Below are positions 28,372 through 48,111 of a stretch of DNA of 64,000 bases, piece after piece. Source of the stretch: a bacterium BMS3Abin14 (GTDB lineage Bacteria > BMS3Abin14). The stretch is taken from the NCBI GenBank assembly GCA_002897695.1, contig BDTG01000046.1, positions 35,411-99,410 of the forward strand, written 5' to 3'. Each line of letters begins with the position of its first letter. Position 1 is the stretch's first letter. A model generated the notes under the pieces. That model was not told the DNA's origin, did no database searches, and saw only the letters and a program-made list of their open reading frames with translations. The position numbers were made by a program, and so were the translations under genes.

Positions 28372-28377
28372 TTTTCC

Positions 28378-30021: not shown

Positions 30022-30120
30022 GTAGCCCTTTCTCTACCCGACGATGCCAGCCTGATTTGTTCCTGGAAAATCAGCGCAGCAACCATCCTGCCGGGCCGAC
30101 ACCGGCGAAAGAAACCGTAA

Positions 30121-32052
30121 TTACACCAAAAAAGTCCAGAAAAGCACCACGACCAAACCAACGGCCATGGCCAGAGCATAGTTTTGAACAAAACCGGTCT
30201 GAAGCCTGGCAAGAAATCCGCCGGCCCGATCCGCGCCATTGGCAATTCCATGAAGCGTTCCGTCGATGACTCCACCATCGAACCCTGTCCACAGAAGGTT
30301 CCCAAGGCGATTAAGCGGCCTGGTGATGATCATCTCGTAGAACTCGTCCACCCACCACTTATGGTAAAAAAGGTCGTAAAGAAAACTGTAGTCTTTCCTG
30401 ATCTCCTCGGCAATCTGGGGTTTGCGCAGAATAATGGCCAGAGCAAGCCAGATGCCCCCGACAGCCACCACGACCGAGACCCCCATCAGACCGAGTTCCG
30501 AAGCGACGGAATGGACGGCCTCGGCCATCTCCCCTGCATGCTCGGTAACGGCGCCGAATACGGGGCCAAGCCAACTGTGCAGGAGATGCCATTTCTCCAC
30601 AATCGGGATCCCGGCAAACCCGCCGACAGTCGAAAGAAATGCAAGGATAACCAGCGGTACAGTCATGACCGATGGGGACTCATGTGCGTGTTTAGCCACT
30701 TCCGGGTCCAGCCTCGACTCACCGTGAAACACCAGGTAGACCAGCCGGAACATGTAAAAAGCCGTCATAAAAGCGGTAACCACACCGGCAAACCACAGGA
30801 GGAAACCACCTCCGTACTTTGAATTGAAGGCGGCGTTGAGGATCTCGTCCTTCGACATGAAGCCCGCCAATGGAGGGATGCCGGAAATGGCCAGGGACGC
30901 CACGACAAATGTCTTATAGGTTGTGGGCATGATCTTTCTCAACCCGCCCATCTTTCGTATGTCCAGCTCCCCGGAAAGGCCATGCATGACGCTGCCCGCA
31001 CACATGAACAACAGAGCCTTGAAAAATGCGTGGGTCATGAGATGAAAGATCGCAGTCGTGTATGCTCCAACACCGACCGCCAGGAACATGTATCCCAACT
31101 GGCTTATCGTGGAGTAGGCCAGGACGCGTTTGAAATCGTTCTGAACAAGTGCAATGGTGGCAGCGAAAAAGGCGGTCAATGCCCCAATTGATGCAATCAC
31201 CATCATGGTTGGGGGGGCCATTTCAAAAAGAACATGACTGCGGCAGACCATATAGACCCCGGCGGTCACCATCGTGGCGGCATGGATGAGGGCGGAAACC
31301 GGTGTCGGGCCCTCCATGGCGTCGGGCAGCCAGATATGGAGAGGCAGCTGGGCGGATTTTCCGATCGCGCCGAGAAAGAGCAGCATGGTGATCAGGATGA
31401 CCATCGGGTCTCCCTGGCTGAACACCTGGTGGGCTCGGCCGAAAACCTCGGCGTATGACAGGGAACCGAAGTGGATGGCGATAAGAAGCATTCCAATCAT
31501 GAAGCCGAAATCGCCCACGCGGTTGACGATGAAAGCCTTCTTCCCCGCCGCCGAGGCGCTCTCCTTTTTGAACCAGAAGCCAATGAGCAGATAGGAACAG
31601 AGCCCCACCCCTTCCCAACCGACGAACATGACCAGGAAGCTGTTGCCGAGCACAAGCATGAGCATGGCGAAAACAAAAAGATTCAGATACAGAAAATAAC
31701 GGGCCACACCCTCATCGTGTTCCATATAGCCGATACTGTAGACATGGATGAGGAATCCGACCCCCGTGATCACCAGGATCATCACGGATGAAAGTGGATC
31801 AAGCAGGAACCCGATGGGGACTGAAAAGTCGCCGGAGCCGATCCACTGGAACAGGTTGATATTGAAAACCCTGGAGCCGGCCTCCATTCCAGTCAATCCT
31901 GAAATGGCCACCACCGAGGCCAGGAACGCCGAGGCCACCGAGCCGCATGCCAGTATCCCCACCGCTGACCTTGACAGGCGCCGGCGGAAGACGAGGTTGG
32001 CGATCACCGCCAGGAGAGGGAAGAGTGGTACCAGGACTACCGCTTCTGTCAT
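30121..32052 (-). CDS. nuoL: NADH-quinone oxidoreductase subunit L
   Basis: GWEGVGLCSYLLIGFW, KSAQLPLHIWLPDAMEGPTPVSALIHAATMV, C-terminal lateral helix region. Confidence 0.95.
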   Translation of the reverse strand: MTEAVVLVPLFPLLAVIANLVFRRRLSRSAVGILACGSVASAFLASVVAISGLTGMEAGSRVFNINLFQWIGSGDFSVPIGFLLDPLSSVMILVITGVGFLIHVYSIGYMEHDEGVARYFLYLNLFVFAMLMLVLGNSFLVMFVGWEGVGLCSYLLIGFWFKKESASAAGKKAFIVNRVGDFGFMIGMLLIAIHFGSLSYAEVFGRAHQVFSQGDPMVILITMLLFLGAIGKSAQLPLHIWLPDAMEGPTPVSALIHAATMVTAGVYMVCRSHVLFEMAPPTMMVIASIGALTAFFAATIALVQNDFKRVLAYSTISQLGYMFLAVGVGAYTTAIFHLMTHAFFKALLFMCAGSVMHGLSGELDIRKMGGLRKIMPTTYKTFVVASLAISGIPPLAGFMSKDEILNAAFNSKYGGGFLLWFAGVVTAFMTAFYMFRLVYLVFHGESRLDPEVAKHAHESPSVMTVPLVILAFLSTVGGFAGIPIVEKWHLLHSWLGPVFGAVTEHAGEMAEAVHSVASELGLMGVSVVVAVGGIWLALAIILRKPQIAEEIRKDYSFLYDLFYHKWWVDEFYEMIITRPLNRLGNLLWTGFDGGVIDGTLHGIANGADRAGGFLARLQTGFVQNYALAMAVGLVVVLFWTFLV

Positions 32053-32063
32053 CGTCTCTTCTC

Positions 32064-32366
32064 CTAGCCCTTCATCAGGTTGATTTCATCAACGTTGACG
32101 GTCTCACGATTGCGGAACAGGGCCACGAGAATCGCGAGACCCACGGCCGCCTCCGCGGCTGCCACCGTCATCACAAAAAACACAAATACCTGTCCCGCCA
32201 TATTGTGTATATAGTGGGAAAAGGCGATCAGGTTGATATTCACGGCATTAAGCATCAGCTCAATGGACAGAAGAATTATGATGATGTTCCTCCGGAGGAG
32301 TACCCCCAGAAGACCGATAACAAACAGAATGGCCCCGAGGACCAGATAGTGCGTAAGGGTAATCAT
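32064..32366 (-). CDS. nuoK: NADH-quinone oxidoreductase subunit K
   Basis: [22 protein letters not shown]. Confidence 0.95.
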
Positions 32367-32875
32367 TCCGCGCTCTCCCTTCGAGCCAGGACCACAGCCC
32401 CGAAAATCGCCACCAACAGAACCAGGGATGCCAGTTCAAACGGAAACAGAAACGTTGTGTAAAGGCTCGCGCCCACAGCTTCGGTATTTCCCCCGAAGAC
32501 GTTGCCGACAAGTTTGGCGACCGGACGGGAAAATGAACCCTGAACCGCAAGAATGACAAGTTCAAGCGCAAGCGCGATGCCGGCGACCATGGCAAAGAAT
32601 CGCTGGCGGTGTATTATCCTCAGCTCCCTGGTGCCGGAAAGATTCAGCAGGGTAACGACAAAAAGGTAAAGGACCATAATAGCCCCGGTGTAGACCAGAA
32701 TCTGAACGGCAGCCAGAAATTCGGCGTCCAGCAGGACAAAAAGACCCGCGATATGGAAGAAACACGGGATGAGGAATATCACCGAATGGACGGGGTTGGA
32801 ACGGGAAACCGACAGCACGGCCGTCACTACCGTAACCACCGCAAAATAGTAAAACAACAATGAATACAGATTCAT
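32363..32875 (-). CDS. nuoJ: NADH-quinone oxidoreductase subunit J
   Basis: [33 protein letters not shown]. Confidence 0.93.
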
Positions 32876-32885
32876 CAGCCGCTCC

Positions 32886-33332
32886 CTACAGGTCCTTGTA
32901 CTGGGGGTCGTCCCCCTTGGCCAGCATAGTCTCTTTGGTCACCTTCAGATTGCCGGGGTCGGTGACAGTCAACTCATAATCGTTCCCCATCCAGACGGCA
33001 TCAACGGGACAGACCTCCTGGCAGAATCCGCAATAGATGCAGAGCCCCAGGTCGATCTGGTAGAAATCGACGTTTTTCTCGTGCTCCTCGCCCTCGGAGG
33101 TTACGATGGTAATGGCATCGGATGGGCAGATCGCCGCACACAGGGCACAGCCCACGCACCTCTCCTTGCCGTCCGGATGCCGTTTGAGAATCTGAGCGCC
33201 TCTATATCGGGGGGGCGGTTCCCAACGCACCTCCGGATATCTGAGGGTAACCGGCTTGGAGAAAAAATATCTGATGGTAAGAGTCAGCCCCTGAATCAGG
33301 TCAGTTTGGAAAATGTTGGTCAGCAGGCCCAC
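32886..33332 (-). CDS. nuoI: NADH-quinone oxidoreductase subunit I
   Basis: TLRYPE, CVGCALCAAICP and CIYCGFCQEVCP (2x[4Fe-4S]). Confidence 0.95.
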   Translation of the reverse strand: MGLLTNIFQTDLIQGLTLTIRYFFSKPVTLRYPEVRWEPPPRYRGAQILKRHPDGKERCVGCALCAAICPSDAITIVTSEGEEHEKNVDFYQIDLGLCIYCGFCQEVCPVDAVWMGNDYELTVTDPGNLKVTKETMLAKGDDPQYKDL

Positions 33333-33343
33333 TGCGATCTCTC

Positions 33344-34363
33344 CTATAAAATTCCGGATATTCTGATGATACCGGACAAAAAGACATTAAAAATTGCGAG
33401 AGGAAGAAGAACTTTCCAGCCAAGCCCCATGAGCTGGTCATACCGGAGTCTGGGAAACGTCCACCGCACCCAGACCATGAAGAAGAGAAAAAATCCAACC
33501 TTCAACAAAAACCAGACGACAGGCATGACATAGGCCACAAACGCGGCGGGCAGCGCCGAATCGATGATGGGCCCGACAATAGGCAGCGGGAGCCACCCCC
33601 CGAAGAACAGAACGACCAGAACGCAGGATATGGAGATCATGGAAACGTACTCGGCCATGAAGAAGAGGGCGAACTTCATGGATGAGTATTCCACGTGATA
33701 ACCGGCCACAAGCTCCTGCTCGGCCTCGGGAAGGTCAAAGGGAAGACGGTTGGTCTCGGCGAAGGCCGCGACCAGAAAAAGGAGAAATCCCAGGAACTGC
33801 GGGATGACAAACCATAGCCCACGCTGCGCCTCCACGATCTGCACCATTGACAGGGAACGCGAGTACATGAGCACCCCTATGATGGAGAGTCCGAGGGTCA
33901 GTTCATAGCTGATCATCTGCGCAGCGGACCGCAACCCGCCCATGAGAGCGTACTTGTTGTTGGATGACCACCCGGCCAGAACCAGCCCGTAAACGCCCAG
34001 AGATGAGATGGAAAGTATGTACACGATGCCGATATTCAGATCGGATATCTGGAGATGGGGCCCGATGGGGATGACGGCGAACGTCAGCAGAGCCGGAATA
34101 AATGCCATGAGCGGCGCCAGGACAAAGAGAACCTTGTCGGCATTGGAAGGCATTATATCTTCCTTGAAAAAGAGCTTGAGCGCATCTGCGATGGGCTGAA
34201 GAAGCCCAAAAGGACCCACATAAAGTGGTCCGTGCCGATTCTGGATATGACCCGACACCTTCCTTTCAACCCACACCATAACCGGCACACCCGTCAGGGC
34301 CACGATGAGGATACCCACTATTTTCAGCAGGATGACGAACAAGAAAAGCCAGATATTCTCCAT
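33344..34363 (-). CDS. nuoH: NADH-quinone oxidoreductase subunit H
   Basis: ERKV..IQNRHGP, GLLQPIADALKLFFKE, AETNRLPFDLPEAEQELVAG. Confidence 0.95.
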   Translation of the reverse strand: MENIWLFLFVILLKIVGILIVALTGVPVMVWVERKVSGHIQNRHGPLYVGPFGLLQPIADALKLFFKEDIMPSNADKVLFVLAPLMAFIPALLTFAVIPIGPHLQISDLNIGIVYILSISSLGVYGLVLAGWSSNNKYALMGGLRSAAQMISYELTLGLSIIGVLMYSRSLSMVQIVEAQRGLWFVIPQFLGFLLFLVAAFAETNRLPFDLPEAEQELVAGYHVEYSSMKFALFFMAEYVSMISISCVLVVLFFGGWLPLPIVGPIIDSALPAAFVAYVMPVVWFLLKVGFFLFFMVWVRWTFPRLRYDQLMGLGWKVLLPLAIFNVFLSGIIRISGIL

Positions 34364-34386: not shown

Positions 34387-35385
34387 TTAATATTCCATGG
34401 CGCCGGATCGCTTGATTTCTCCAACCTTCTCGAGGAGGAAAAAGGCGTCCGTGTTCTCAGGATTGAGCTTAATAGCGTTGTTGAGCACCTCTTCGGCCTT
34501 GTCCAGCAGTCCAAGATGAACGTAGCTGTTGCCCAGGTGATACAGGGCGCTGGAATCCATCGGATCGAGTTCTTTAACCCGGTTGAAGCTGGCCGCGGCG
34601 TCCTCATGTGACCCCTTCCTGGCCTGAGCAACTCCCAGATGGTAGTAGGCGGCTGTAAATTGAGGTGACAGAGCCAGCGTTTGTTCGTATGCCTTGACGG
34701 CATCCTGCATGTTGCCCAGGTGGAAGTAGACCTGCCCCAGCCAGTAGTAGGCCATGACGTATCCGGGGGAGATCTCCACCACCTTCCTGAGGGCATCCTC
34801 AGCATCCTTCAGCATGCCTTTCTGGAAATAAACGGTCCCCAATACGTACATGGCCCTTGCGAAGGTGGGTGATATTTCGAGGGATCGCCGCAACTCCTCT
34901 ACCGCGTCGTCGAGCTTGGCGTTCTTCTGGTGGAGCAGGGCAAGACGGTAATGAATCTGGGCGGTGTCGGGTATCATCTTTTCCACCCGGTTGAAATGAA
35001 ACTCCGAATCAGGAAGAAGACCCATGGAGTAGCATGTCATTCCAAGGCGATAATGAACCGCGGGAGATGTGGGATTTGCGGCCTCAGCCTTCTTGAAACA
35101 CTCCAGGGCCGCCGACAGCATCCCCTTGTCGTAGTAGGCAACCCCCATGTAGTAATGGGTCATCTGAAAATCAGGCACCAGTTCGAGGGTTTCTTCCCAG
35201 CGCTTAAGCGCGTCGTCGAAGTGCCCCTGGTGGTAGAGGGAACTTCCATCGCGGTAGAGCTTTTCGGCCTTCTCCTTGTTGGAAAGAGCCTCATGGTCAT
35301 CGACCGTCGCCTCAAGCTTGTTGCCGCACTCCTTGCAGTAGCGGCTGTCCTCCGGGATCAACAGATTGCATGCCGGGCAGATCAT
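34387..35385 (-). CDS. Zinc-ribbon plus multi-TPR protein inserted in the nuo operon
   Basis: N-terminal CPAC...CKEC followed by roughly eight TPR-like repeats (e.g. HYYMGVAYYDKG, YYHLGVAQARKG). Confidence 0.85.
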   Translation of the reverse strand: MICPACNLLIPEDSRYCKECGNKLEATVDDHEALSNKEKAEKLYRDGSSLYHQGHFDDALKRWEETLELVPDFQMTHYYMGVAYYDKGMLSAALECFKKAEAANPTSPAVHYRLGMTCYSMGLLPDSEFHFNRVEKMIPDTAQIHYRLALLHQKNAKLDDAVEELRRSLEISPTFARAMYVLGTVYFQKGMLKDAEDALRKVVEISPGYVMAYYWLGQVYFHLGNMQDAVKAYEQTLALSPQFTAAYYHLGVAQARKGSHEDAAASFNRVKELDPMDSSALYHLGNSYVHLGLLDKAEEVLNNAIKLNPENTDAFFLLEKVGEIKRSGAMEY

Positions 35386-38177: not shown

Positions 38178-39992
38178 CTATTCCTTCACCACAGCGTTGA
38201 ACCTGCACACCTCGAAGCATGTATTGCATTTGGTGCACATGTCTTGGTCGATGACATGGACCTCTTTCCTGTTCCCGGAGATCGCCCCAACCGGACACTT
38301 TTTCGCGCAGACCGTGCAACCAGTGCAGGCGTCCTCCAGGATCCGATATGTGATAAGGGCGGTGCATACCTTGGCAGGGCATATCTTGTCCCGGATATGC
38401 GCCTCGTATTCGTTTCTGAAGTACCGGAGGGTGGAGAGTACCGGGTTGGGGGCGGTCTGACCGAGGCCGCACAGGGAGGTGCGCTTGATCTCCTGCCCCA
38501 GGTCCTCCAGGTTCTTCAGGTCCCCCATGGTACCCTCGCCCGCGGTGATACGTTCGAGGACCCCCAGCATGGTCTTTGTACCCAGCCGGCAGGGAACACA
38601 CTTGCCGCACGACTCGGCAGTCGTGAATTCAAGGAAAAACCGCGCCACGTCCACCATGCAGTCGGTTTCGTTCATGACCACAACTCCGCCGGAGCCCATC
38701 ATGGCGCCCGCCTGGATGAGGGAATCGTAATCGATGGCGGTATCGCCCAGGTCGGCGGGCAGGCATCCGCCCGAGGGCCCTCCCAGTTGGGCCGCTTTGA
38801 ACTGGCTGCCTCCATCGACCCCGCCGCCGATGTCGTAGATTATCTCCTTAAGCTGGGTTCCCGCCGGGACCTCGATGAGTCCCGTATTCTTGATCTTCCC
38901 CGTGAGCGCGAAGACTTTTGTGCCCTTGGTGCCCTTTGTACCCACACTGGCACAGCTCTCGGCGCCGTTGAGGATAATGGGCGGCACGTTTGCGAAGGTC
39001 TCCACGTTGTTTATGTTGGAGGGTTTGGCCCACAGGCCCTTATGGGCCGGAAACGGAGGCCTGGACCTGGGCATTCCACGTCTCCCTTCGATGGAAGCCA
39101 TCAGGGCCGTCTCCTCGCCGCAGACAAAGGCGCCGGCGCCCTCCTTGACCCTGAGCTTGAAAGAAAAATCGGTTCCCAAAATCCGGTCGCCCAGGTAACC
39201 CTTCTCCTCAGCCTGCATGATGGCCAGTTTGAGGCGCTTGATGGCAAGTGGATACTCTGCGCGGCAGTAAATATAGCCGTAGCTGGCACCGATGGCATAG
39301 GCGGCGATGATCATCCCCTCAATTACCGCATGGGGATCGCCCTCAAGAACGCTCCGGTCCATGAACGCTCCAGGATCGCCCTCATCGGCGTTACAGATCA
39401 GGTACTTGGGCTCTCCGGCGGCGTTGGCGCAAAAATCCCATTTCAGCCCGGTGGGGAACCCTCCTCCGCCCCGACCCCTGAGGCCTGACCGCTTAACGAC
39501 CTCCCTGATGATGGTGGGGGACATGGTGTTGATGGCCTTCTCCGTCGCCTTGTATCCGTCGGTCTCGAGGTAGTCCTCCACCTTCTCCGGATCTATAAAC
39601 CCACAGCGCCTGAGGACGACACGTTTCTGCTTCTTGAAGACGGGCATCTCCTCATAGGTCGGTATCCCCTTGTATGGCCTGTGCCCCTCCGAAACGATCT
39701 GGCCGATGGCGTATTCGGTGACCGGCTTTCCCCCTACAAGGTGGCTTTCGAGGATACCGGGCACCATCTCGGGGGTCACCTTGGCATAGGTGACCCGTGC
39801 CTTTCCCGGCAGCACCACATCCAAAAGGACCTCCTGGTAGCACATGCCGATGCACCCCGTCTTCAGGATAGGAACCTCGATGGAGAGGGACTTGAGGTAG
39901 TCCTCTACCTCGCTGAGGATGCCCTTCGCACCTGTAGCAAGCCCGCAGGTTCCCATTCCAATGACGATCATTTTTTCGCTGTCATATCCCAT
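38178..39992 (-). CDS. Long NuoF/HydB (BfuB)-type flavin subunit, 604 aa
   Basis: N-terminal thioredoxin-like Cys motif (GTCG...GCIGMC), GRGGGGFP, ADEGDPGAFMDR, ESCGKCVPC..CGLG, H-x4-C-x4-C, C-terminal 2x[4Fe-4S]. Confidence 0.88.
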   Translation of the reverse strand: MGYDSEKMIVIGMGTCGLATGAKGILSEVEDYLKSLSIEVPILKTGCIGMCYQEVLLDVVLPGKARVTYAKVTPEMVPGILESHLVGGKPVTEYAIGQIVSEGHRPYKGIPTYEEMPVFKKQKRVVLRRCGFIDPEKVEDYLETDGYKATEKAINTMSPTIIREVVKRSGLRGRGGGGFPTGLKWDFCANAAGEPKYLICNADEGDPGAFMDRSVLEGDPHAVIEGMIIAAYAIGASYGYIYCRAEYPLAIKRLKLAIMQAEEKGYLGDRILGTDFSFKLRVKEGAGAFVCGEETALMASIEGRRGMPRSRPPFPAHKGLWAKPSNINNVETFANVPPIILNGAESCASVGTKGTKGTKVFALTGKIKNTGLIEVPAGTQLKEIIYDIGGGVDGGSQFKAAQLGGPSGGCLPADLGDTAIDYDSLIQAGAMMGSGGVVVMNETDCMVDVARFFLEFTTAESCGKCVPCRLGTKTMLGVLERITAGEGTMGDLKNLEDLGQEIKRTSLCGLGQTAPNPVLSTLRYFRNEYEAHIRDKICPAKVCTALITYRILEDACTGCTVCAKKCPVGAISGNRKEVHVIDQDMCTKCNTCFEVCRFNAVVKE

Positions 39993-40021: not shown

Positions 40022-40576
40022 TCATTCCCCACCCTTCGTACCGTCCATCTCCCGGAGGTTCTTGATGATCTTGTCCACCTTGGGGGGTGTCAAGTGCCCG
40101 AGCGCGTCGTCATCGATCATGATGACCGGCGCCAGCCCGCAACATCCGAGACAGGCTACCTTCTCGAATGAGGCAAATCTGTCCTCGGTGGTCTCTCCAT
40201 GCCCGACGTCGAGAATGGACTCGAGTCGGTCGATTATACCCTTGGCGCCACGGACGTGGCAGGCTGTCCCGGAGCAGGCCCGGATGATGTGGCGCCCTCT
40301 GGGCGTTAGGTGAAACTGCGTATAGAAGGTCAGAACGCCGTACACCTGGCTTCGGTAGAGCCCAAGTTCATCGGCTACAAGGTTGGCAGCCTCCTCGGGA
40401 ACGTAGCCATAGGCCGTTTGAACCCCCTGAAGAACTGGGATCAGCATCCCCCTGGCATCATTAAGCGACCCGAGGATTTCCCGCACGTGAGCAAGATCGA
40501 GCTCCTCCTCGACTTCCTCGGTCCCCGCATCCACCCGGACACCCTCCGGGGTTACCTCGGTTACATCGGCGCTCAC
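40022..40576 (-). CDS. NuoE/HydC (BfuC)-type [2Fe-2S] subunit of the second module
   Basis: CSGTACHVRG...CLGCCGLAP. GTG 40576 overlaps the upstream stop (GTGA) with a GGAGG RBS; the ORF extends to 40588. Confidence 0.88.
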   Translation of the reverse strand: MSADVTEVTPEGVRVDAGTEEVEEELDLAHVREILGSLNDARGMLIPVLQGVQTAYGYVPEEAANLVADELGLYRSQVYGVLTFYTQFHLTPRGRHIIRACSGTACHVRGAKGIIDRLESILDVGHGETTEDRFASFEKVACLGCCGLAPVIMIDDDALGHLTPPKVDKIIKNLREMDGTKGGE

Positions 40577-41040
40577 CGCCACCTCCACATGTAATTAACC
40601 ATGTCGATGTACCGTTCGTTCATTCCCCTCAGGGAGTCCACCAGTTCATCTATAATGAGCTTCATGATCTTCACGGCGTCCGCAGGGTGTTCCTCCACAA
40701 ACCGGTCGAATGACGCCCGGTCCAGCAGGTACAGCACGGTCTCTCCCTTGGCGCCGGCATCGGCCGAGTGCTCGCCTCCCGAAAGGAAGGTCATAATGCC
40801 GACGAAACGCCCCGCGGGAACGATACCCAGATTCTGGGCTTCGCCCTCTTTGGCCCTTTTCGTGATTCTCACCGCCCCCTGGCCTACCAGGTAAAGATCG
40901 CCACCCGGGGTTCCCTCGTTGAAGATCGGCCCCTTATCCTGATAGGCCCTCCTTTGAAGGACCCTTGCCAGATAATTCAAGGCATCGGCCGAAATAGTCT
41001 GGAATGACTTCATCTGTTTGAGCTGGCTAATTTCAATCAT
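40573..41040 (-). CDS. Stand-alone cyclic-nucleotide-binding-fold (Crp N-terminal-like) protein
   Basis: IFNEGTPGGDLYLVGQGAVRI...GRFVGIMTFL...HSADA; no HTH; 155 aa. Confidence 0.8.
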   Translation of the reverse strand: MIEISQLKQMKSFQTISADALNYLARVLQRRAYQDKGPIFNEGTPGGDLYLVGQGAVRITKRAKEGEAQNLGIVPAGRFVGIMTFLSGGEHSADAGAKGETVLYLLDRASFDRFVEEHPADAVKIMKLIIDELVDSLRGMNERYIDMVNYMWRWR

Positions 41041-41053
41041 CTTTCATTCCTCC

Positions 41054-43729
41054 TCAAAACTTCTCAACCCGGACCCGGACCACAGCGGTCTCCAGCCCGG
41101 CGCCGTTTTCCCCCATAAGACGGCTGACCGGTACATCGGAGAAGTGGCGCGGCAAAAAGAGCACCCCGGGCAAAAGATCGTTTGAAAACTTTACGCCGAC
41201 CGCAACCTCACCACCGGGGGAAACCACCTTGACCCGGCTTCCGTCCTCAATATCCAGCCCGGCGCCGGTGGCCTCGTTCATTGTCAGAACCGCCCTGCCG
41301 ACAAGCTGATTGAGGGATTCCGAATACCCGGTAAAACTCCCGGAGTGCATCAGCAGATTACCGACCAGCAGTGTCAGGGGATAATCCGGATCCCTTGCAA
41401 AACCTCCCCATCCTTCCACTGCTGCGAAGGAGCGCTTCACATCCGGGACCGAATCCGGCAGAAGGTGTCTGGTCCCAAGGTAACCCTCGCTGTAGACCTC
41501 CTGGGCATCCTGCCTGGTGAAGGGCCACTGAATGCCGTGGTCGGCCAGAATGCGATAGTTGATCCCGGAGTAGTACGGCACGACGCTGGAGATCTCATCG
41601 AGCACTTCCGCGGAGTTGACGTACTTGAGCCCTTCAACGCCCATGGATACACCGACTTCCGAGAATATCCTCCAGTCGGGCATGGTTTTCCCGGCCCCGT
41701 CCTGGGCTTTTTTGCTTAGCTGTACCCTTCTGTCAATGCTCGTGAGGGTGCCGTCCTTTTCGGGAAGGCCGCAGGCAGGCAGAACGACATGGGCACTGGA
41801 TGCCGTCTCCGTCAGGAACAGCTCCTGAACCACGAGGAATTTTACCCTGGCCAGGGCCTCCTCGATCATCTGCCTATCCGGAAATGTTACAACCGGGTTT
41901 ACTCCAACGAGGTACAGCGCCGAAAGCTTACCCTTCCCGGCGGCGGCGAACATCTCGTTGGCATTCATCCCCGGTTTTTTTGGAAGAACGGCATCCCAGG
42001 TTTTCTCAAGGGTTTTTACGCCCCCGGAAGATCCGACCTGAACCCACCCGGGAAGATGGCCGGGTGATACGCCCATGTCTACAACACCCTGAAAGTTGGT
42101 GTTGGAAAGGACGGGATAAATACCGCAGCCTTCCTTTCCAAGGCGGCCGGTAAGCATCAGGAGATCGATAAGAGCGTTTATCAGATCCCCGCCGTTGGGA
42201 CCCAGGGCGGCTTCCTCACCAAATATAACGGACGACTTCCCGGCGGAGATGAATTCCCTCGCAGTCTGGGTGATGTCGTTAACGGAAACGCCCGCATCCG
42301 ATGCCATCTTCTCAAGGTCAAGGCCGCCGACCGATCCCCTGAGGGCCTTCATGCCCTTATAATCCGACAGGGCCTCCTCATCGACCAGTCCCTCATCCAG
42401 CATGACCCGCATCATCCCCTTGATGAACGTCACCTCATTGCCCACGTCAAGGAGCACCGTCCGGCCTGCAAGCCGCGACAGGGCTGTACGCCTGGGTATG
42501 AGTTCGGTTACCGAAGCGCCTTTTCTAATGGCCGCCTTGATCTTGAGCCCGGCAATGGGGCTCTCCACGGTTATGTCACATCCCACGAGGAGCAGGGATT
42601 CAACATAATTAAGCTCGTCAAGAGAATTCGGCGCGGCCAGAACTCCAAGTCGTTTCTCAAGGATGGGCAGAACGAGGCGGTTCCAGTTTCCGGTCGGCGT
42701 GTCCACATTGTTGCTTTCAAAACCGACCCTGAAAATCTTCTGGAAAAGGTAGAGCTCTTCATTGGTCAGGCGGTCCGATACGACCCCGCCGATGGAGTTG
42801 CCGCCGCTCGTTTTCTTCACTTCCCCGAAACCCCTGGAAATTTCTTCCAGGGCCTCCTCCCAGGAGGCCTCGACCAGTTCATCACCCTTCCGGATCAGGG
42901 GTGATCTGAGCCGTTCGGGGTTATTGATGGCATCGTACCCGAAATAGCCCCTGGAGCACAGACTGCCGTAATTGACCCCCCTGTTTTCCGCGTTGGTCAC
43001 TTTGAGCACCTTGTTATTTCGATGATTGTAGACCAGCGTGCAGCCCACGCTGCAGTACGGACAGATGGCCTCCGTCTTGTCCATCTCCCACGTACGGAAC
43101 CTCTCCTTCATGGCCCTGGAAGTGATAGCCCCCACCGGACATACCCAGATACAGTGTCCACAGTATTCGCAGTCGAGGGACTTTTCCATGAACGGTCCCA
43201 CGATCGTCTGGGCGCCGCGGTATGACATTCCGAGGGCCGTCACCCCCTGGATCTCATCGCATATCCTGACGCACCTTTTGCACTGTATGCACCTGTTAAG
43301 ATTCCGGTCGATGAGCGGGCTGATGATATGGTCCCTCAGGATCCTCTTCTTCTCTCCGAATCTGGTCTCGCCGCTTCCGAACTTGAAGGAAATATCCTGA
43401 AGGGCGCAATCCCCGGAAGCATCACATACGGTACACTCCAGGGGATGGTTGATAAGGAAAAATTCCAGCATCATCCTCCTGGCTTTCTGGACCCGCGGCG
43501 TGTTGGTCCTGATCTCCATGCCATCCAGGACCGCCAGGGTGCAGGCCGTCTGCAGTTTGCCCATACCTTCCACTTCCACCAGGCACATACGACAGGCGCC
43601 GAGCTCGCTCAGCATGGGGTGATGACAGAATGTGGGAATATGGATACCAAGCTTCCTGGCCGCGGCGAGGACGTGAAGATGCCCGTCCACCTTGATCTGC
43701 TTTCCGTCTATTACCAGGCGGACCATCAT
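41054..43729 (-). CDS. nuoG: NADH-quinone oxidoreductase subunit G (long, FdhF-like)
   Basis: PTFCHH...GACRMC, HPLECTVC, CIQCKRC / CEYCGHC, CPYCSVGC...LC; degenerate molybdopterin-oxidoreductase C-terminal half. Confidence 0.85.
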   Translation of the reverse strand: MMVRLVIDGKQIKVDGHLHVLAAARKLGIHIPTFCHHPMLSELGACRMCLVEVEGMGKLQTACTLAVLDGMEIRTNTPRVQKARRMMLEFFLINHPLECTVCDASGDCALQDISFKFGSGETRFGEKKRILRDHIISPLIDRNLNRCIQCKRCVRICDEIQGVTALGMSYRGAQTIVGPFMEKSLDCEYCGHCIWVCPVGAITSRAMKERFRTWEMDKTEAICPYCSVGCTLVYNHRNNKVLKVTNAENRGVNYGSLCSRGYFGYDAINNPERLRSPLIRKGDELVEASWEEALEEISRGFGEVKKTSGGNSIGGVVSDRLTNEELYLFQKIFRVGFESNNVDTPTGNWNRLVLPILEKRLGVLAAPNSLDELNYVESLLLVGCDITVESPIAGLKIKAAIRKGASVTELIPRRTALSRLAGRTVLLDVGNEVTFIKGMMRVMLDEGLVDEEALSDYKGMKALRGSVGGLDLEKMASDAGVSVNDITQTAREFISAGKSSVIFGEEAALGPNGGDLINALIDLLMLTGRLGKEGCGIYPVLSNTNFQGVVDMGVSPGHLPGWVQVGSSGGVKTLEKTWDAVLPKKPGMNANEMFAAAGKGKLSALYLVGVNPVVTFPDRQMIEEALARVKFLVVQELFLTETASSAHVVLPACGLPEKDGTLTSIDRRVQLSKKAQDGAGKTMPDWRIFSEVGVSMGVEGLKYVNSAEVLDEISSVVPYYSGINYRILADHGIQWPFTRQDAQEVYSEGYLGTRHLLPDSVPDVKRSFAAVEGWGGFARDPDYPLTLLVGNLLMHSGSFTGYSESLNQLVGRAVLTMNEATGAGLDIEDGSRVKVVSPGGEVAVGVKFSNDLLPGVLFLPRHFSDVPVSRLMGENGAGLETAVVRVRVEKF

Positions 43730-45003
43730 GCTGATTCCTCCAACGTTCCGCCGTCCGGCTCTTCGCCCTTCAAATAACCCAGGTACTCATCCCTGAACTT
43801 TTCCATGGTGCTCGTCACACAGCTGACCGATGCCTCTCCCAGCCCACAGAAGGACGTGGTCCGGATGCTCTCACAAATATCCGACAGCAGATCCAGATCG
43901 GCCATGGCGCCGCGGCCCTCCAGGATCCTGTCGAATATCCTTCTGACCCAGAAAAGACCCTCCCTGCATGGAGTGCACTTACCGCAGGATTCGTGCTCGA
44001 AAAACTTGATAAGCACGTGGGTGACCTTGACCATATCGGCGGTATCGTCCAGGACCATGACGGCCCCTGATCCGAGCATGCTGCCGGCCGCAGCCAAGGC
44101 ATTGAAATCCAGCTTCACATCAAGCTGGGATTCGTCAAGACAGGCGGAAGATGCGCCTCCCGGGAAGGCCGCCTTGAAGCTCCTGTTGTCCCGCATCCCA
44201 CCGGCGTGCTCAAAGACAAGCTCACGCAGGGTAACCCCCATGGGCAGTTCATAGACCCCGGGATTGACCACGTGGCCGCTGACGGAGAAAAGCTTTGTTC
44301 CGGGGCATTCCGGCGTACCGATCCCTGCGTACCAATCACCGCCCCTCAGGAGTATCTGCGGAATGGAAGCGAGTGTTTCAACGTTGTTGACGACCGTAGG
44401 CAGGTCACTGTATCCGACGTTGACCGGGAAGGGAGGGCGAATTCTGGATTGCCCCCTTTTTCCCTCCAGGGACTCGATGAGGGCGGTCTCCTCACCGCAC
44501 ACATAAGCTCCCGCTCCCCGATGTACGGTTATCGTGAAATTGAAACCCGAGTTCAGGATGTTCTCACCGAGAAACGATCTTTCCTCAGCCTCTTTAATGG
44601 CCCGTTCCAGAACCCTGGCCCCAAAGGGGTATTCACCGCGAATGTAGATGAAGCCATACTCCGCCCCCACGGCATATGCGGCCAATGCCATCCCCTCCAG
44701 GATGGCATGGGGGTCGTTCTCGATCAGCACCCTGTCCTTGAAAGTTCCGGGCTCACCCTCGTCCGCATTGCATATGATGAACTTCGGGCTGCGCCGGTCC
44801 CGTGACGCAAAGTCCCACTTCATGCCCGCGGGAAACCCTGCCCCGCCCCGACCCCTCAGCCGGGAAAGTTTAACCTCCTCAAGGACATCCTCGGGGCCCA
44901 TTTCGTTCAAGGCCCTGGGGAGAGCAACGTATCCCTCGTTGACCAGATAGGAATCGATATGCGCCGGATTGGGCCGGTCAATATTTCGGGTCAGGATCTT
45001 CAA
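43726..45003 (-). CDS. nuoF: NADH-quinone oxidoreductase subunit F (canonical short form)
   Basis: GRGGAGFP, NADEGEPGTFKDR, YVCGEETAL, ESCGKCTPC...CGLG. Probable TTG start at 45003; the ORF extends to 45084. Confidence 0.92.
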   Translation of the reverse strand: MKILTRNIDRPNPAHIDSYLVNEGYVALPRALNEMGPEDVLEEVKLSRLRGRGGAGFPAGMKWDFASRDRRSPKFIICNADEGEPGTFKDRVLIENDPHAILEGMALAAYAVGAEYGFIYIRGEYPFGARVLERAIKEAEERSFLGENILNSGFNFTITVHRGAGAYVCGEETALIESLEGKRGQSRIRPPFPVNVGYSDLPTVVNNVETLASIPQILLRGGDWYAGIGTPECPGTKLFSVSGHVVNPGVYELPMGVTLRELVFEHAGGMRDNRSFKAAFPGGASSACLDESQLDVKLDFNALAAAGSMLGSGAVMVLDDTADMVKVTHVLIKFFEHESCGKCTPCREGLFWVRRIFDRILEGRGAMADLDLLSDICESIRTTSFCGLGEASVSCVTSTMEKFRDEYLGYLKGEEPDGGTLEESA

Positions 45004-45007
45004 AACG

Positions 45008-45499
45008 CTACGCCTTCTGCCTGTATGACTCAAGGATGCTACCAACACCGTCGGCTGAAACCTGCCGGTAGAGATCCGCATCAACCATCAGGGCCGGAGC
45101 ATGGTCGCACGCCCCTATACACTCCACTTCCACCAGTGAAAATATGCCGTCGGCAGTGGTCTGCCCCACTTCTATGCCCAGTTCCCTTTCAACCGCCCCG
45201 AGAATCTCATCCGACCCGTTGACCGAACAGCTCATGCTCCGACAGATCTGGACAAGATGCCTGCCCATGGGTTTCGTAAAGAACATGGTGTAGTAGGTGG
45301 CCACCTCAAAGGCCCTTACGTGGGGAATCTCGAGCATGTTCGCGATAAAGACGAGATCCTCCTCGTCCAGAGATTGTTTCTTTCCCTGAACGAAGTGCAG
45401 AAGGGGCATGATGGCGGACGCTTTTATGGGATATCGGCCGACAATGCCTTCCATGGCCCTGACGTCATCGGCTTTGAGGTATCCGGGGGGCGCCGTCAT
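45008..45499 (-). CDS. nuoE: NADH-quinone oxidoreductase subunit E
   Basis: ATYYTMF, CRSMSC...CIGACDHAP. Confidence 0.92.
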   Translation of the reverse strand: MTAPPGYLKADDVRAMEGIVGRYPIKASAIMPLLHFVQGKKQSLDEEDLVFIANMLEIPHVRAFEVATYYTMFFTKPMGRHLVQICRSMSCSVNGSDEILGAVERELGIEVGQTTADGIFSLVEVECIGACDHAPALMVDADLYRQVSADGVGSILESYRQKA

Positions 45500-46668
45500 C
45501 GGTCAATTTCCCCCAAGACAATATCAAGGCTCCCGATGATGGCCACCACATCGGCAAGCATATGCCCCTTGGCCATATCCATGAGGGACTGGAGATTGAC
45601 GAATGAGGGAGGACGGATTCTGAGGCGGTACGGCTTTGGCGTCCCGTCGCTGACGATATAAAAACCGATCTCGCCCTTGGGCGATTCAATGCTGGAATAT
45701 ACTTCCCCCTCGGGCGGCGCCAATCCGTCCACCACCAGTTTGAAGTGGTGGATCATGGCCTCCATCGAATCTTTCAGCCGGTCCTTGTCGGGGAAGACGT
45801 ACTTGGCGGTGCGCTCGATGAAAGGCCCTTCGGGAAGGCCCTTGACCAGCTGTCTGACCATTCGGGAACTCTGCCGCATTTCGACGAGACGGACAAGATA
45901 CCTCGCATAGATATCGCCGGCGGTCCTGACGGGAATGTCAAATTCAATCTCGTCGTAGGCCTCGTAAGGTTCGTCCCTTCGGATATCCCAATCAACACCT
46001 GAAGCACGCATAGCGGGTCCGGAAAGGCCCAGGCTGATGGCATCGGCCCGGCTGAGAACCCCGATATTCCTTGTCCTGTGCAACCATATGCGATTCTTTG
46101 TCAGAAGCCTCTCGTACTCATTGATGCGGACATCAAACTTGTCGAGGAAAGCGATGATCTTCGCATCAACACCCGCCGGGAGGTCACGGACTACACCGCC
46201 GGGACGGAAGTAGGTCATCATCATGCGTGTACCGGCGGTCTCCTCGATAATATCCAGGATGAACTCCCTCTCCCGGAAGCCGTAAAGGAGGACCGTCAGG
46301 GCGCCGATATCGGCCGCGTGGGTGCCCAGCCACACCAGGTGGCTCATGATCCGGGACAGCTCCGCAAATATGGTCCTGATATACTGCGCGCGGCGTGGAA
46401 CGTCCATCTCCAGGAGTTTTTCAACCGCCAGGATGTATGACAGATTGTTGGTGCCGGAGGAAAGATAGTCCAGTCGGTCGGTGAGAGGAATCACCTGAAG
46501 GTACTTCTTGTCTTCGGAAAGTTTTTCTATACCCCTGTGCAGATAACCGATATCGGGAACCGCGTTGACCACCGTCTCGCCGTCCAGCTCCAGGATAATC
46601 CGGAGGACGCCGTGGGTGGAGGGATGCTGAGGCCCCATGTTGATGGTCATTACTTCCTGTCTGGCCAT
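45496..46668 (-). CDS. nuoD: NADH-quinone oxidoreductase subunit D
   Basis: GPQHPSTHGVLR, GYLHRGIEK, ESPKGE, DIVLGEIDR; no NiFe CxxC motifs. Confidence 0.95.
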   Translation of the reverse strand: MARQEVMTINMGPQHPSTHGVLRIILELDGETVVNAVPDIGYLHRGIEKLSEDKKYLQVIPLTDRLDYLSSGTNNLSYILAVEKLLEMDVPRRAQYIRTIFAELSRIMSHLVWLGTHAADIGALTVLLYGFREREFILDIIEETAGTRMMMTYFRPGGVVRDLPAGVDAKIIAFLDKFDVRINEYERLLTKNRIWLHRTRNIGVLSRADAISLGLSGPAMRASGVDWDIRRDEPYEAYDEIEFDIPVRTAGDIYARYLVRLVEMRQSSRMVRQLVKGLPEGPFIERTAKYVFPDKDRLKDSMEAMIHHFKLVVDGLAPPEGEVYSSIESPKGEIGFYIVSDGTPKPYRLRIRPPSFVNLQSLMDMAKGHMLADVVAIIGSLDIVLGEIDR

Positions 46669-46679
46669 CTATTCCTCCC

Positions 46680-47189
46680 TCACCACTCTTCCCGTCCTCC
46701 GACGGGAAATTCCTTACGCAGGGGATATCCTTCGAAATCGCTGGGCATGAGTATCCTTCTCAGGTCCGGATGATCCGCAAATGGAATGCCGAAAAGATCA
46801 AAAATCTCCCTCTCCAGCCAGTCGGCTCCCCGCCACAATCCGCAGACGCTGTCTACTTCCTGCCCTTCCGAAATCCTCGTCTTGAGCCGGAAGCGCATTT
46901 TGCCGGCGATGGAAAATAGCTGATAGATGACATCGAATGGGGCCTCTTTCCTGACAGGCCAGTGGACGGCCGTAACGTCCGAGAGGAAATCGAAGGCCAG
47001 TTCCGGGTCATCCTTGAGAAAGCGAAGCGCGTCCCTGCATTTTTCGGGGGCGATGACCACTCCGACCTCACCTCGGAAGAATTCAATTTCCCGAACAGCC
47101 CCTGAAAAATTTTTGCGAAGTGCCGTAACCGCGGGATGCTTCTCCGGATCCTCCCCCGCGAAGTTCTGGCGATTCCAGTTAACCGTCAA
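46680..47189 (-). CDS. nuoC: NADH-quinone oxidoreductase subunit C
   Basis: [32 protein letters not shown]. Confidence 0.93.
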
Positions 47190-47740
47190 ATCGTCTCCTT
47201 TTTATGCGGCCCCGTAAATCCCGGCGCAACCTTGCGGGGTACCGCAGAAAAGTTTGACTGGCTGTCAATCTTCATCTGAAGGGTCATGAGCCCGTGGATG
47301 AGGGCCTCGGGACGCGGAGGGCATCCGGGAACATAGACATCCACCGGAATAACATGGTTCACCCCGGGGACCACACTGTAGGTCTGAAAGATCCCGCCGC
47401 ACGTCGCGCAGCTTCCCATGGCCAGAACCCATTTGGGGTCTGCCATCTGATCGTAAAGCTTCTTGAGCACCGGCGCCATCTTGTTTGTCACGGTCCCGGC
47501 CACGATCATAAGGTCGGCCTGCCTGGGGGAGGACCTGAAGACCTCCATGCCGAAACGGGCTATATCATATCGCGCGGCCGCGGTGGCCATCATCTCTATG
47601 GCACAACAGGCCAGCCCGAAGCCGAGGGGCCACAGCGATGATCGCTGTGCCCAGTTAATGGCGGAACTTAACGTTGTGAGAACGATATTGCCCTCATCCG
47701 GGTGTGGACCTTTATAAATGTGGGTGGGGTTTTTGCTCAT
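47186..47740 (-). CDS. nuoB: NADH-quinone oxidoreductase subunit B
   Basis: [37 protein letters not shown] 47740 overlaps the nuoA stop. Confidence 0.95.
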
Positions 47741-48111
47741 GACCAGTCCAGAGCTCCCTTCCTCCATACGTAGACATAGCCGAAGAGGAGGACAGCGATA
47801 AAGAGGATCATCTCGACGAAACCGAAGATAACCGGGTTGAAACGGTCAAAGAGGATCGCCCACGGATACAGGAACACTATTTCAACGTCAAACAGGATAA
47901 ACAGCATGCCTATGAGGTAGAATCGAACGTCAAAGCGCCCCCTGGCATCCTTGAAGGGGACCATGCCGCATTCATAGGTGGAGTTTTTCTCCGCGGTGGG
48001 ATTCTTTTTCCCCATGAAAACGGACATGACCACCATTCCACCGCCCACGCCGCCTACCGCGAGGAGGAAAATAAATACAGGCAGATAATTGAGGACGAGC
48101 TCCCCTTTCAC
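47737..48111 (-). CDS. nuoA: NADH-quinone oxidoreductase subunit A
   Basis: [34 protein letters not shown]. Confidence 0.95.

Follow-up and report, generated by a model that had tools for sequence, protein, structure and literature searches.

In the 64,000-nucleotide stretch analysed here (the window), from contig BDTG01000046.1 of the uncultured anaerobic bacterium BMS3Abin14, two input heads of complex I are encoded in one operon, whose genes follow the order nuoABCD-EFG-cNMP-E′F′G′-TPR-HIJKLMN and are separated by gaps of 4-29 nt (Table 1). The start of E′ overlaps the stop of the cNMP-fold gene, and E′ lies 29 nt upstream and G′ 6 nt downstream of F′, which are the adjoining positions of BfuC and BfuA. 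On independent contigs, gene callers place the start of the short nuoF at 45003, giving 425 aa, and not at 45084. When an internal promoter or terminator was sought between EFG and E′F′G′, consensus matches were no commoner than in shuffled sequence. An identical 604-aa F′, flanked by the same genes, was found on at least eight contigs, which belong to independent assemblies in ENA, NCBI and Logan and, therefore, the layout of the locus is not an assembly artefact. A chimeric MAG as the origin of the unusual F′ end was rejected on the same agreement of independent assemblies.

Table 1. Features of the dual-head nuo operon, in coordinates of the window.
Feature	Coordinates	Strand	Evidence
nuoA, nuoB, nuoC, nuoD, upstream of both modules	45496..48111	minus	context
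NuoE, canonical, 163 aa	45008..45499	minus	Pfam, equivalog search
NuoF, canonical short, 425 aa (longest ORF extends to 45084)	43726..45003	minus	TIGR01959, signatures
NuoG, canonical, 891 aa	41054..43729	minus	Pfam; TIGR01973 passed (481.5 vs 470.05)
cNMP-binding-fold protein, 155 aa, between modules	40573..41040	minus	Pfam PF00027
E′, BfuC/HydC-type [2Fe-2S] subunit, 184-188 aa	40022..40588	minus	Pfam PF01257, PDB matches
F′, BfuB/HydB-type flavoprotein, 604 aa	38178..39992	minus	Pfam, phmmer, motif mapping, AF2/Foldseek
G′, FdsA/NuoG-like BfuA subunit, 926 aa	35391..38171	minus	Pfam, PDB match, motif mapping
Zinc-ribbon/TPR protein, 332 aa, between G′ and nuoH	34387..35385	minus	Pfam, context
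nuoH, I, J, K, L, M, N, downstream of both modules	26890..34363	minus	context

The upstream E, F and G are of the NuoEFG/Nqo1-3 kind; they pass the equivalog cut-offs and carry non-bifurcating signatures. In the case of the short NuoF, the score against TIGR01959 was 573.6 bits for a cut-off of 558.65, which F′ does not reach (485.5 bits). As a previous sequence-only reading of this DNA had stated, the short NuoF carries ADEGEPGTFKDR and lacks the N-terminal domain, the His/Cys motif and the C-terminal ferredoxin domain of its paralogue.

The F′ protein exceeds NuoF/Nqo1 by about 120 N-terminal and 70 C-terminal residues, and its domains are ordered as an N-terminal thioredoxin-like domain with three Cys, the FMN/NADH domain, SLBB, a four-helix bundle with the B1 [4Fe-4S] cluster, the Zn/B2 site and a C-terminal 2x[4Fe-4S] domain. 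Schut et al. (2022) defined the BfuB domain set as a 51-kDa FMN domain, SLBB, the NuoF [4Fe-4S] domain and a 4Fe-4S ferredoxin-type C-terminal domain, and the Pfam content of F′ (PF01512, PF10531, PF10589 and PF00037/PF14697) corresponds to this set. All the strings quoted in the sequence-only reading were located in the 604-aa minus-strand frame: residues 202-213 read ADEGDPGAFMDR, residues 309-315 RSRPPFP and residues 532-543 HIRDKICPAKVC, with CTGCTVCAKKCP beginning at residue 556 and CTKCNTCFEVC at residue 586. However, the His/Cys spacing had been miscounted as H-x4-C-x4-C, the actual motif being H532-x5-C538-x4-C543, and RSRPPFP, which had been offered as a marker of type, does not discriminate, because the short NuoF has IRPPFP and P312, P313 and P315 do not vary across the family.

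A loss of B2, B3 or B4 ligands would have spoken against the assignment, and no such ligand is missing in F′, in which B1 is also complete. The B1 ligands, next to FMN, are C462, C465, C468 and C508. The B2/Zn site of BfuB comprises a His (H525 in A. mobile HydB, absent in non-bifurcating homologues), three Cys and a fifth ligand that is Cys or Thr (Schut et al. 2022, PMC9304861). The same arrangement, with Thr at the fifth position, was mapped in F′ on 7t2r_B as C445, T483, H532, C538 and C543. Across 28 homologues, H532, C445, C538 and C543 do not vary, while the short NuoF has Asp and Tyr where F′ has Cys445 and His532. The C-terminal 2x[4Fe-4S] domain was borne out by eight Cys within residues 556-596, ligating B3/B4 (C556, C559, C562, C566; C586, C589, C592, C596), and by Pfam Fer4/Fer4_21 matches in F′ only and not in the short NuoF. 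The N-terminal Cys domain is indeed thioredoxin-like, but it holds only three Cys (C16, C47 and C51), plus a conserved C130, and the CxxxxC pair found in canonical [2Fe-2S] domains is missing. Csac NfnB and S. ovata StnB show the same pattern, and in Csac NfnB the three-Cys site is occupied by Zn (PMC11829005).

The rule of Ala-x-Met versus Thr-x-Lys invoked in the sequence-only reading is genuine, being among the criteria published by Losey et al. 2020 (PMC7311640), whose derivation used only hydrogenases and formate dehydrogenases. According to these criteria, bifurcating beta subunits have Ala/Glu-x-Met where non-bifurcating ones have Thr/Ser-x-Lys/Ser/Ala, Phe rather than Tyr in GAGA(F/Y), and GGPSG, at positions 232/234, 367 and 427-431 of T. 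maritima HydB. All three are in the bifurcating state in F′ (A209-F-M211, GAGAF289 and GGPSG at 404-408) and in the non-bifurcating state in the short NuoF (T-F-K, GAGAY and GGASS). Additionally, all cofactor ligands and Losey signatures of F′ are present and invariant across the 28 homologues. By phmmer against the PDB, F′ matched Csac NfnB, A. mobile NiFe-HydB, S. ovata StnB, T. sibiricus NfnB and A. woodii HydB with E values from 3e-245 to 2e-230. The AF2 model (pLDDT 87) gave full-length TMq of 0.90-0.91 to bifurcating B subunits versus 0.62-0.65 to NuoF/Nqo1, and the best 15 Foldseek matches were all Bfu B subunits. By sequence and predicted fold, F′ is thus a member of the Bfu family (BfuB), in agreement with its earlier designation as a bifurcating-type subunit, and from this membership we infer a ferredoxin-coupled activity.

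The E′ subunit carries the [2Fe-2S] ligands C105, C110, C146 and C150, and its best PDB matches are 7t2r_C, 8a6t_C and 9n5u_C, with FdsG and NuoE ranking behind. In G′, the N-terminal Fe-S motifs are complete, comprising the His-ligated HPLECPICPQSGRC, two CxxCxxCxxxC and one CxxCxxxC, and the protein, extended at its C-terminus by a tail of some 45 aa, can be aligned with FdsA over its whole length (E 1e-180). However, the molybdenum site is dead, with Ala350 for Cys/Sec and Ser545 for Arg, and the same Ala and Ser replace the catalytic Cys and Arg in every G′ of the phylum. A role of G′ as formate dehydrogenase was therefore rejected; its score against TIGR01591 is 644.7 bits, below the 666.25 cut-off, and it also fails the NuoG equivalog cut-off. 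Its identity between congeners is 92%, on par with NuoD, which indicates that G′ is under selection. Judged from its motifs, G′ is an iron-sulfur conduit without a catalytic molybdenum site and, since this active site is lost, E′F′G′ lacks a catalytic site at which a third substrate could react.

The closest described system is Nuo-Bfu, a 14-subunit form of complex I that was predicted to use BfuABC as its input module and whose BfuB belongs to clades 38/39, as in Geobacter sulfurreducens (Schut et al. 2022, PMC9304861). Bfu modules within nuo operons had thus already been described, a precedent absent from the sequence-only reading, and the literature searched for enzyme assays of the Nuo type yields only this 2022 prediction. 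In Nuo-Bfu, as in BMS3Abin14, a BfuC-BfuB-BfuA trio lies between nuoD and nuoH, in the middle of the nuoA-N cluster, BfuA is NuoG/Fdh-like without a catalytic site, and the proposed third substrate is menaquinone. This exact layout was found in Bfu-only relatives in the phylum and in eight Desulfuromonadales/Geobacteraceae loci. In BMS3Abin14, by contrast, the canonical NuoEFG is not replaced but retained upstream of BfuABC, with the cNMP-fold gene between the sets and the TPR gene after them. Additionally, F′ is only 57-59% identical to its Desulfuromonadales counterparts and differs in its N-terminal domain, which is of the three-Cys NfnB/StnB type. No earlier report of two NuoEFG-type sets in one operon was found in the full-text literature searched, nor in Spero et al. 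2015, which does not prove their absence elsewhere. What is new here is the context, a canonical and a Bfu head in one complex I operon, and not the Bfu-type head itself.

Other relatives share parts of this architecture. The best matches of F′ are the NfnABC/StnABC transhydrogenases of C. saccharolyticus (9bov/9bp5), S. ovata (8oh5) and T. sibiricus (9n5u), with E values from 3e-245 to 8e-238 and TMq of 0.90-0.91. Like F′, they have three Cys in the N-terminal domain, a B2 site of the Zn type that includes Thr, and B3/B4 in the C-terminal domain. However, the BMS3Abin14 module has no NfnL/GltD-like domain, and sister species fuse this domain to the C-terminus of F′ and not to subunit A. The HydABC [FeFe] enzymes (T. 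maritima 7p5h, A. woodii 7q4v, T. kivui 8a6t) and the NiFe-HydABCSL of A. mobile (7t2r) share with F′ the BfuBC core and all ligand positions, residue-mapped on 7t2r_B, whereas G′ lacks an H-cluster or NiFe partner and the N-terminal domain of HydB has a four-Cys [2Fe-2S] site instead of the three Cys of F′. In the case of FdsABG (R. capsulatus 6tg9, C. necator 6vw7), FdsA matches G′ over its full length, but in G′ the Mo-ligand Cys is replaced by Ala and the catalytic Arg by Ser, and FdsB is without the C-terminal clusters of F′ and resembles it less in fold (TMq 0.76-0.80).

The dual-head layout is present in 11 of the 16 species of this small candidate phylum. The cNMP-fold gene, found in 11 of the 16 genomes, is a marker of the dual operon, and homologues of its product number only 39 in a set of 5.8 billion proteins. 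An assignment to MBNT15, suggested by the literature, was set aside because the nuo layout published for that taxon is different; in NCBI, relatives are labelled 'Deltaproteobacteria/Pseudomonadota bacterium'. In ten of the eleven dual operons, those of the congener G001 and nine other species, F′ is fused C-terminally to a GltD/NfnL-like FAD/NADPH domain that replaces the ferredoxin-docking end; only the BMS3Abin14 species combines both heads with the classical F′ end. In fact, no GltD-like domain was detected by Pfam in its E′, F′ or G′, whereas an Nfn-Bfu enzyme would be expected to contain one. An apparent split of F′ near residue ~415 in the relative G003 proved to be a scaffold gap, a run of N, and not a gene rearrangement. 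In five syntenic nuo operons of related lineages, orthologous E′F′G′ is the sole input module, with 78-80% (F′) and 59-61% (G′) identity to the BMS3Abin14 copies. Residues 1-414 of F′ track the genus's own GltD-fused allele, while residues 415-604 and the F′/G′ junction track the allele of the Bfu-only relatives; in sequence terms, F′ of BMS3Abin14 is a recombinant. As the classical end occurs in all five operons with E′F′G′ as sole head and in none of the ten with the fusion, it appears to go with the capacity to be the sole head.

On balance, E′F′G′ is predicted to be a second, Bfu-type input head of complex I, beside the NADH-only NuoEFG. Its docking partner is most likely the complex I of the same operon, with G′ making the contact to NuoB/C/D/I and a Nuo-Bfu as the result, since E′F′G′ has no site for a third substrate and its orthologue is the sole input module in syntenic sister operons; its only obvious outlet would be the quinone module of complex I. 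The C-terminal two-cluster domain docks ferredoxin in solved relatives of F′, and electrons from NADH and reduced ferredoxin would pass together through E′F′G′ to menaquinone or, in the reverse mode, the proton-motive force would drive the formation of NADH and reduced ferredoxin. The same genome encodes Rnf and at least four 2-oxoacid:ferredoxin oxidoreductases, which points to ferredoxin as a major electron carrier. The canonical NuoEFG would then provide an NADH-only isoform, and two forms of complex I would be produced in the cell. Some observations sit uneasily with this reading: it is not obvious how one head could be selected over the other when both are encoded in one operon, the oxidation of both donors by menaquinone is downhill, as set out below, and the prevalence of the GltD fusion in dual operons suggests that, alongside a canonical EFG, the second module has a different, Nfn-like role and may be soluble.

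The last of these observations leads to a rather unlikely alternative, in which E′F′G′ is a soluble or peripheral Bfu enzyme riding in the nuo operon, with its third partner elsewhere or as a leftover of the relatives' NADPH-linked Nfn-like enzyme, and complex I uses NuoEFG only. The fusions in the other dual operons give the module the look of an NfnABC with shuffled domains, most of the nearest homologues from outside the phylum are Nfn-Bfu, and the NuoF and NuoG equivalog cut-offs are passed by canonical F and G and failed by F′ and G′, all of which would suit such an enzyme. However, with neither a GltD domain nor a live Mo site, the BMS3Abin14 module has no third substrate alone. When a displaced copy of the fused domain was sought elsewhere in the genome, none was found, the best GltD-like paralogues, encoded away from the operon, being only 34-43% identical to it. 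Additionally, orthologues with the same C-terminal end serve as the only input module in the five related nuo operons.

It is also conceivable, though unlikely, that E′F′G′ docks on complex I without coupling its donors, as a plain entry for NADH and/or ferredoxin, a ferredoxin:quinone route like that of cyanobacterial NDH-1. With menaquinone at -74 mV, the oxidation of NADH and that of ferredoxin are both downhill (Table 1 of PMC9304861), each half-reaction being exergonic, so that energetic coupling would be dispensable and the Bfu features could be inherited and unused; besides, the residue signatures come from other enzyme classes, as mentioned above. On the other hand, the bifurcation core (FMN, B1, C1, the Zn site and B3/B4) is invariant, its conservation matching that in enzymes for which bifurcation has been shown, and an FMN/NADH site would be needless for simple ferredoxin entry. 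Finally, a redundant duplicate in decay, to which the two paralogous sets in one operon and the identity of E′ (79%) and F′ (84-86%) between congeners, below that of flanking genes, might point, is highly improbable, because the reading frames are uninterrupted, no cofactor ligand has been lost, F′ is identical in many independent samples, G′ is as conserved as stated above and the mosaic origin of F′ explains its lower identity.

Beyond the predicted second head itself, it may tentatively be proposed, as a possible but doubtful extension, that heads are exchangeable in this phylum: an NADH-only EFG would coexist with a Bfu head whose third port is swapped by recombination between the ferredoxin-docking end and the NfnL/GltD NADPH domain, the cNMP-fold and Zn-ribbon/TPR proteins acting as switching or assembly factors. 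If this were true, one transcript would give rise in the BMS3Abin14 species to both an NADH-only and an NADH-plus-ferredoxin proton-pumping complex I. The phylum provides a comparison series at one syntenic locus, namely a canonical head alone, a Bfu head alone, both with the NADPH-domain fusion and both with the classical end, and thereby ready constructs for expression and structural work. Nuo-Bfu, in which NADH and ferredoxin would feed jointly into complex I, is a prediction bearing on energy conservation in anaerobes that use low-potential menaquinone, and also on the evolution of the NADH module of complex I.

The assignment made in the sequence-only reading, that F' is a bifurcating-type flavoprotein opposite in character to the short NuoF, proved correct as judged by signatures, PDB matches and predicted fold. 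All strings quoted there were found in the two proteins: F' carries ADEGDPGAFMDR at residues 202-213, RSRPPFP at 309-315, HIRDKICPAKVC at 532-543 and CxxCxxCxxxC twice (556-566 and 586-596), versus ADEGEPGTFKDR in the short NuoF, which is without the extra domains of F'. The extra C-terminal clusters are indeed confined to F', the only one of the two with ferredoxin-type 4Fe-4S domains in Pfam. The rule invoked as established, Ala-x-Met against Thr-x-Lys, is real and matches Losey et al. (2020, PMC7311640), in which bifurcating and non-bifurcating beta subunits are separated by Ala/Glu-x-Met versus Thr/Ser-x-Lys/Ser/Ala near the NADH site, by Phe versus Tyr in GAGA(F/Y)xCGEE, and by GGPSG in the SLBB domain of the bifurcating proteins. 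At all three positions F' is in the bifurcating state, the short NuoF having T-x-K, Tyr and GGASS. RSRPPFP does not discriminate, since the whole family shares RPPFP, and the His/Cys motif, although present, is spaced H-x5-C-x4-C and not H-x4-C-x4-C. The five-residue B2 site includes a His that 1550 of 1558 BfuB sequences have and non-bifurcating homologues lack (Schut et al. 2022, PMC9304861). None of these ligands is missing: the site of A. mobile HydB (7t2r_B) maps to C445, T483, H532, C538 and C543 of F', the fifth position being Thr as in about two thirds of BfuB proteins. Where F' has Cys445 and His532, the short NuoF has Asp and Tyr. The N-terminal thioredoxin-like domain is also present, with three Cys (C16, C47, C51) and a conserved C130 instead of the canonical four-Cys [2Fe-2S] pattern. 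The same three-Cys pattern is that of NfnB and StnB, and in C. saccharolyticus NfnB the corresponding site holds Zn (PMC11829005); since the authors of that work conclude that FMN, B1 and C1 make up the minimal bifurcation site (PMC11829005), lack of an N-terminal [2Fe-2S] cluster would be no argument against bifurcation.

Among all PDB sequences, the top phmmer matches of F' were bifurcating B subunits, namely C. saccharolyticus NfnB (9bov_B, 3e-245), A. mobile NiFe-HydB (1e-243), S. ovata StnB (4e-243), T. sibiricus NfnB (8e-238) and A. woodii HydB (2e-230), with the T. kivui and T. maritima HydB proteins next and FdsB (1e-122) and Nqo1/NuoF (~1e-115) below them. An AlphaFold2 model built with 28 homologues (pLDDT 87, pTM 0.85) retrieved only Bfu-family B subunits among its top 15 Foldseek matches, the query-normalised TM being 0.90-0.91 for the best full-length Bfu entries, 0.76-0.80 for FdsB and 0.62-0.65 for NuoF. 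The short NuoF passes the NCBIfam NuoF equivalog cut-off of 558.65 bits with 573.6, and F' falls below it with 485.5. Taken alone, the claim on F', although correct, is the rediscovery of a published class.

Regarding the partners, the best matches of E' are BfuC/HydC chains (7t2r_C, 2e-46), above FdsG and NuoE. The alignment of G' to the alpha subunit of NAD-dependent formate dehydrogenase (6tg9_A, 1e-180) runs from end to end and shows Ala350 in place of the Mo-ligand Cys and Ser545 in place of the catalytic Arg, losses shared by every G' of the phylum. G' scores slightly below the Fdh-alpha cut-off and also below that for NuoG, which the upstream NuoG passes; the N-terminal cluster motifs, the His-ligated one included, are complete in both. 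E'F'G' is therefore, by its predicted ligands, a complete Bfu BC core on an iron-sulfur conduit, without a catalytic site for a third substrate.

Genes of the nuo operon of the window (all positions in the window).
Feature	Position	Strand	Remark
nuoA	47737-48111	minus	first gene of operon
nuoB, nuoC		minus	between nuoA and nuoD
nuoD	45496-46668	minus	
nuoE	45008-45499	minus	
short nuoF	43726-45003	minus	
nuoG	41054-43729	minus	
cNMP-binding-fold gene	40573-41040	minus	junction of two heads
E'	40022-40588	minus	
F'	38178-39992	minus	604 aa
G'	35391-38171	minus	
zinc-ribbon/TPR gene	34387-35385	minus	after G'
nuoH through nuoN	34363 down to 26890	minus	

Neighbouring genes overlap or stand 4-29 nt apart, promoter and terminator consensus matches do not exceed their frequency in shuffled sequence, and the region from nuoA to nuoN reads as one transcription unit. 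At least eight contigs, drawn from independent assemblies of ENA, NCBI and Logan, carry the exact 604-aa F' in the same nuoD-E-F-G-cNMP-E'-F'-G'-TPR-nuoH context, which excludes a chimeric bin as the source of the layout. In dual-head operons, G' ends in a conserved tail of ~45 aa (…KIKKTVQEIQ…SGG; window 35391-35530) that is missing in Bfu-only G' and in canonical NuoG.

The window genome, 2.28 Mb in 49 contigs, is from a phylum that is represented by only 16 species, all of one family and divided among nine genera. Comparison of the nuo locus in 14 of the 16, a single syntenic locus with hemL and ATP synthase F0 genes upstream, revealed four head layouts. Ten species, including the congener G001, have a dual operon (EFG, cNMP, E', a 1026-aa F', G', TPR); two relatives (G005, G006) and three further metagenomic contigs have the Bfu-only order nuoABCD-E'F'(604-608 aa)G'(867-887 aa)-H..N, the arrangement that Schut et al. 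call Nuo-Bfu; G008 and probably G013 are canonical-only; and the dual operon with the classical end occurs in the window species only. In the fused F' (L081:5887-8967 in G001; also L082, L086-L091 and L001), the BfuB core (1-548) is followed, after residue ~548, by a GltD/NfnL-like FAD/NADPH domain (Pfam Fer4_20 + Pyr_redox; two [4Fe-4S], FAD, NADPH) that replaces the ferredoxin-docking B3/B4 end; the enzyme resembles NfnABC, except that subunit B, not A, carries the NADPH domain. All ten species' copies of this fusion lie in dual-head nuo operons (10/10), and the classical end goes with absence of the canonical EFG in 5/5 operons, the window species being the sole exception. The cNMP-fold gene, present in 11 of 16 genomes, marks the dual layout; its protein, with only 39 homologues (>=55% identity) among 5.8 billion proteins, is confined to dual-head operons of the phylum. 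Related domains were also seen elsewhere: G006 carries a stand-alone E' and F'::GltD pair with no adjoining G' (contig C155, L084:7746-11344), its Bfu-only nuo operon lying elsewhere, and the window genome has a GltD-like domain in a 653-aa open frame ~200 nt past the window end (G000:C46:99615-100910; 34% identical to the F'-fused domain) and another GltD-like gene on contig C19 (43%).

The F' of the window species appears to be a mosaic. Protein identity to G001 is 85-93% in flanking genes, 79% in E' and 84-86% in F'. By sliding DNA identity, the last ~300 nt of F' are 0.82-0.85 to the Bfu-only G006 and only 0.59-0.65 to G001, returning to ~0.9 to G001 in G' immediately after the F' end. Of the sites that tell the two alleles apart, 17 of 21 in residues 1-414 are of the GltD class and 12 of 14 in residues 415-551 are of the Bfu-only class, the latter type being found also in the 6-nt F'/G' spacer and the first G' codons. 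The NuoD tree groups the window species with G001, and the F' core tree places its F' at the base, in an unsettled position outside the GltD clade (support 91/93). The simplest reading is that recombination put a Bfu-only allele end over the 3' third of a GltD-fused F', which would have recreated a classical BfuB inside a dual operon. The scaffold of another relative, G003, breaks in a run of N inside F' at residue ~415 (L092:9753-11207, L093:3016-5997), where the mosaic breakpoint of the window species also lies, which could reflect allele heterogeneity in the population or coincidence. Bfu-only and canonical-only layouts are nested inside the dual one in the NuoD tree, which makes the latter paraphyletic; the dual layout thus appears to be ancestral, and those with a single head appear to have arisen by loss.

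With no predicted third-substrate site in E'F'G', and with its orthologue as sole head in five syntenic operons, the most likely outlet would be the complex I encoded around it, through the NuoI/NuoB cluster chain to menaquinone. FMN would take electrons from NADH and the B3/B4 domain of F' would take them from reduced ferredoxin, or the module would run in reverse, and NuoEFG, on the same transcript, would give an NADH-only complex I isoform. The genome encodes an Rnf cluster (RnfC, RnfD adjoining; G000:C21:27522-29422) and at least four 2-oxoacid:ferredoxin oxidoreductases, so reduced ferredoxin should be plentiful. We lean, with some reserve, towards E'F'G' docking on complex I and using ferredoxin. 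That F' is fused to GltD in nearly all dual operons hints instead at a soluble, Nfn-like job of the second module beside the canonical EFG, and a soluble enzyme is kept as a rather doubtful alternative. An uncoupled alternative entry is also improbable, although electron flow to menaquinone is exergonic from both NADH and ferredoxin and therefore needs no coupling on thermodynamic grounds; that a module with its B2 ligands and cluster motifs in place is decaying is hardly credible.

Bfu modules within nuo operons are already known as a predicted kind under the name Nuo-Bfu (PMC9304861), defined in part by BfuABC replacing NuoEFG, whereas the window operon has both. The 80 closest homologues of F' from other phyla (<=61% identity) are mostly in Nfn-Bfu trios, eight are in Desulfuromonadales/Geobacteraceae Nuo-Bfu operons, and at none of these loci was a second head found within the nuo operon. 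At two of the Nuo-Bfu loci (L046, L055), a 442-448-aa ORF that matches the short canonical NuoF stands outside the nuo operon, upstream of nuoA by a few genes, and gives these genomes too a canonical-type NuoF-like gene near their Bfu-headed complex I. Full-text literature searches and a survey of complex I phylogenomics yielded no report of two heads in one operon, of cNMP-fold and TPR genes that are lineage-specific and flank the second head, or of a flavoprotein on which a ferredoxin-docking end and an NADPH domain are exchanged for one another, and all three appear to be undescribed. The worth of the finding lies in this dual layout and in a natural variant series that makes the Nuo-Bfu hypothesis testable.
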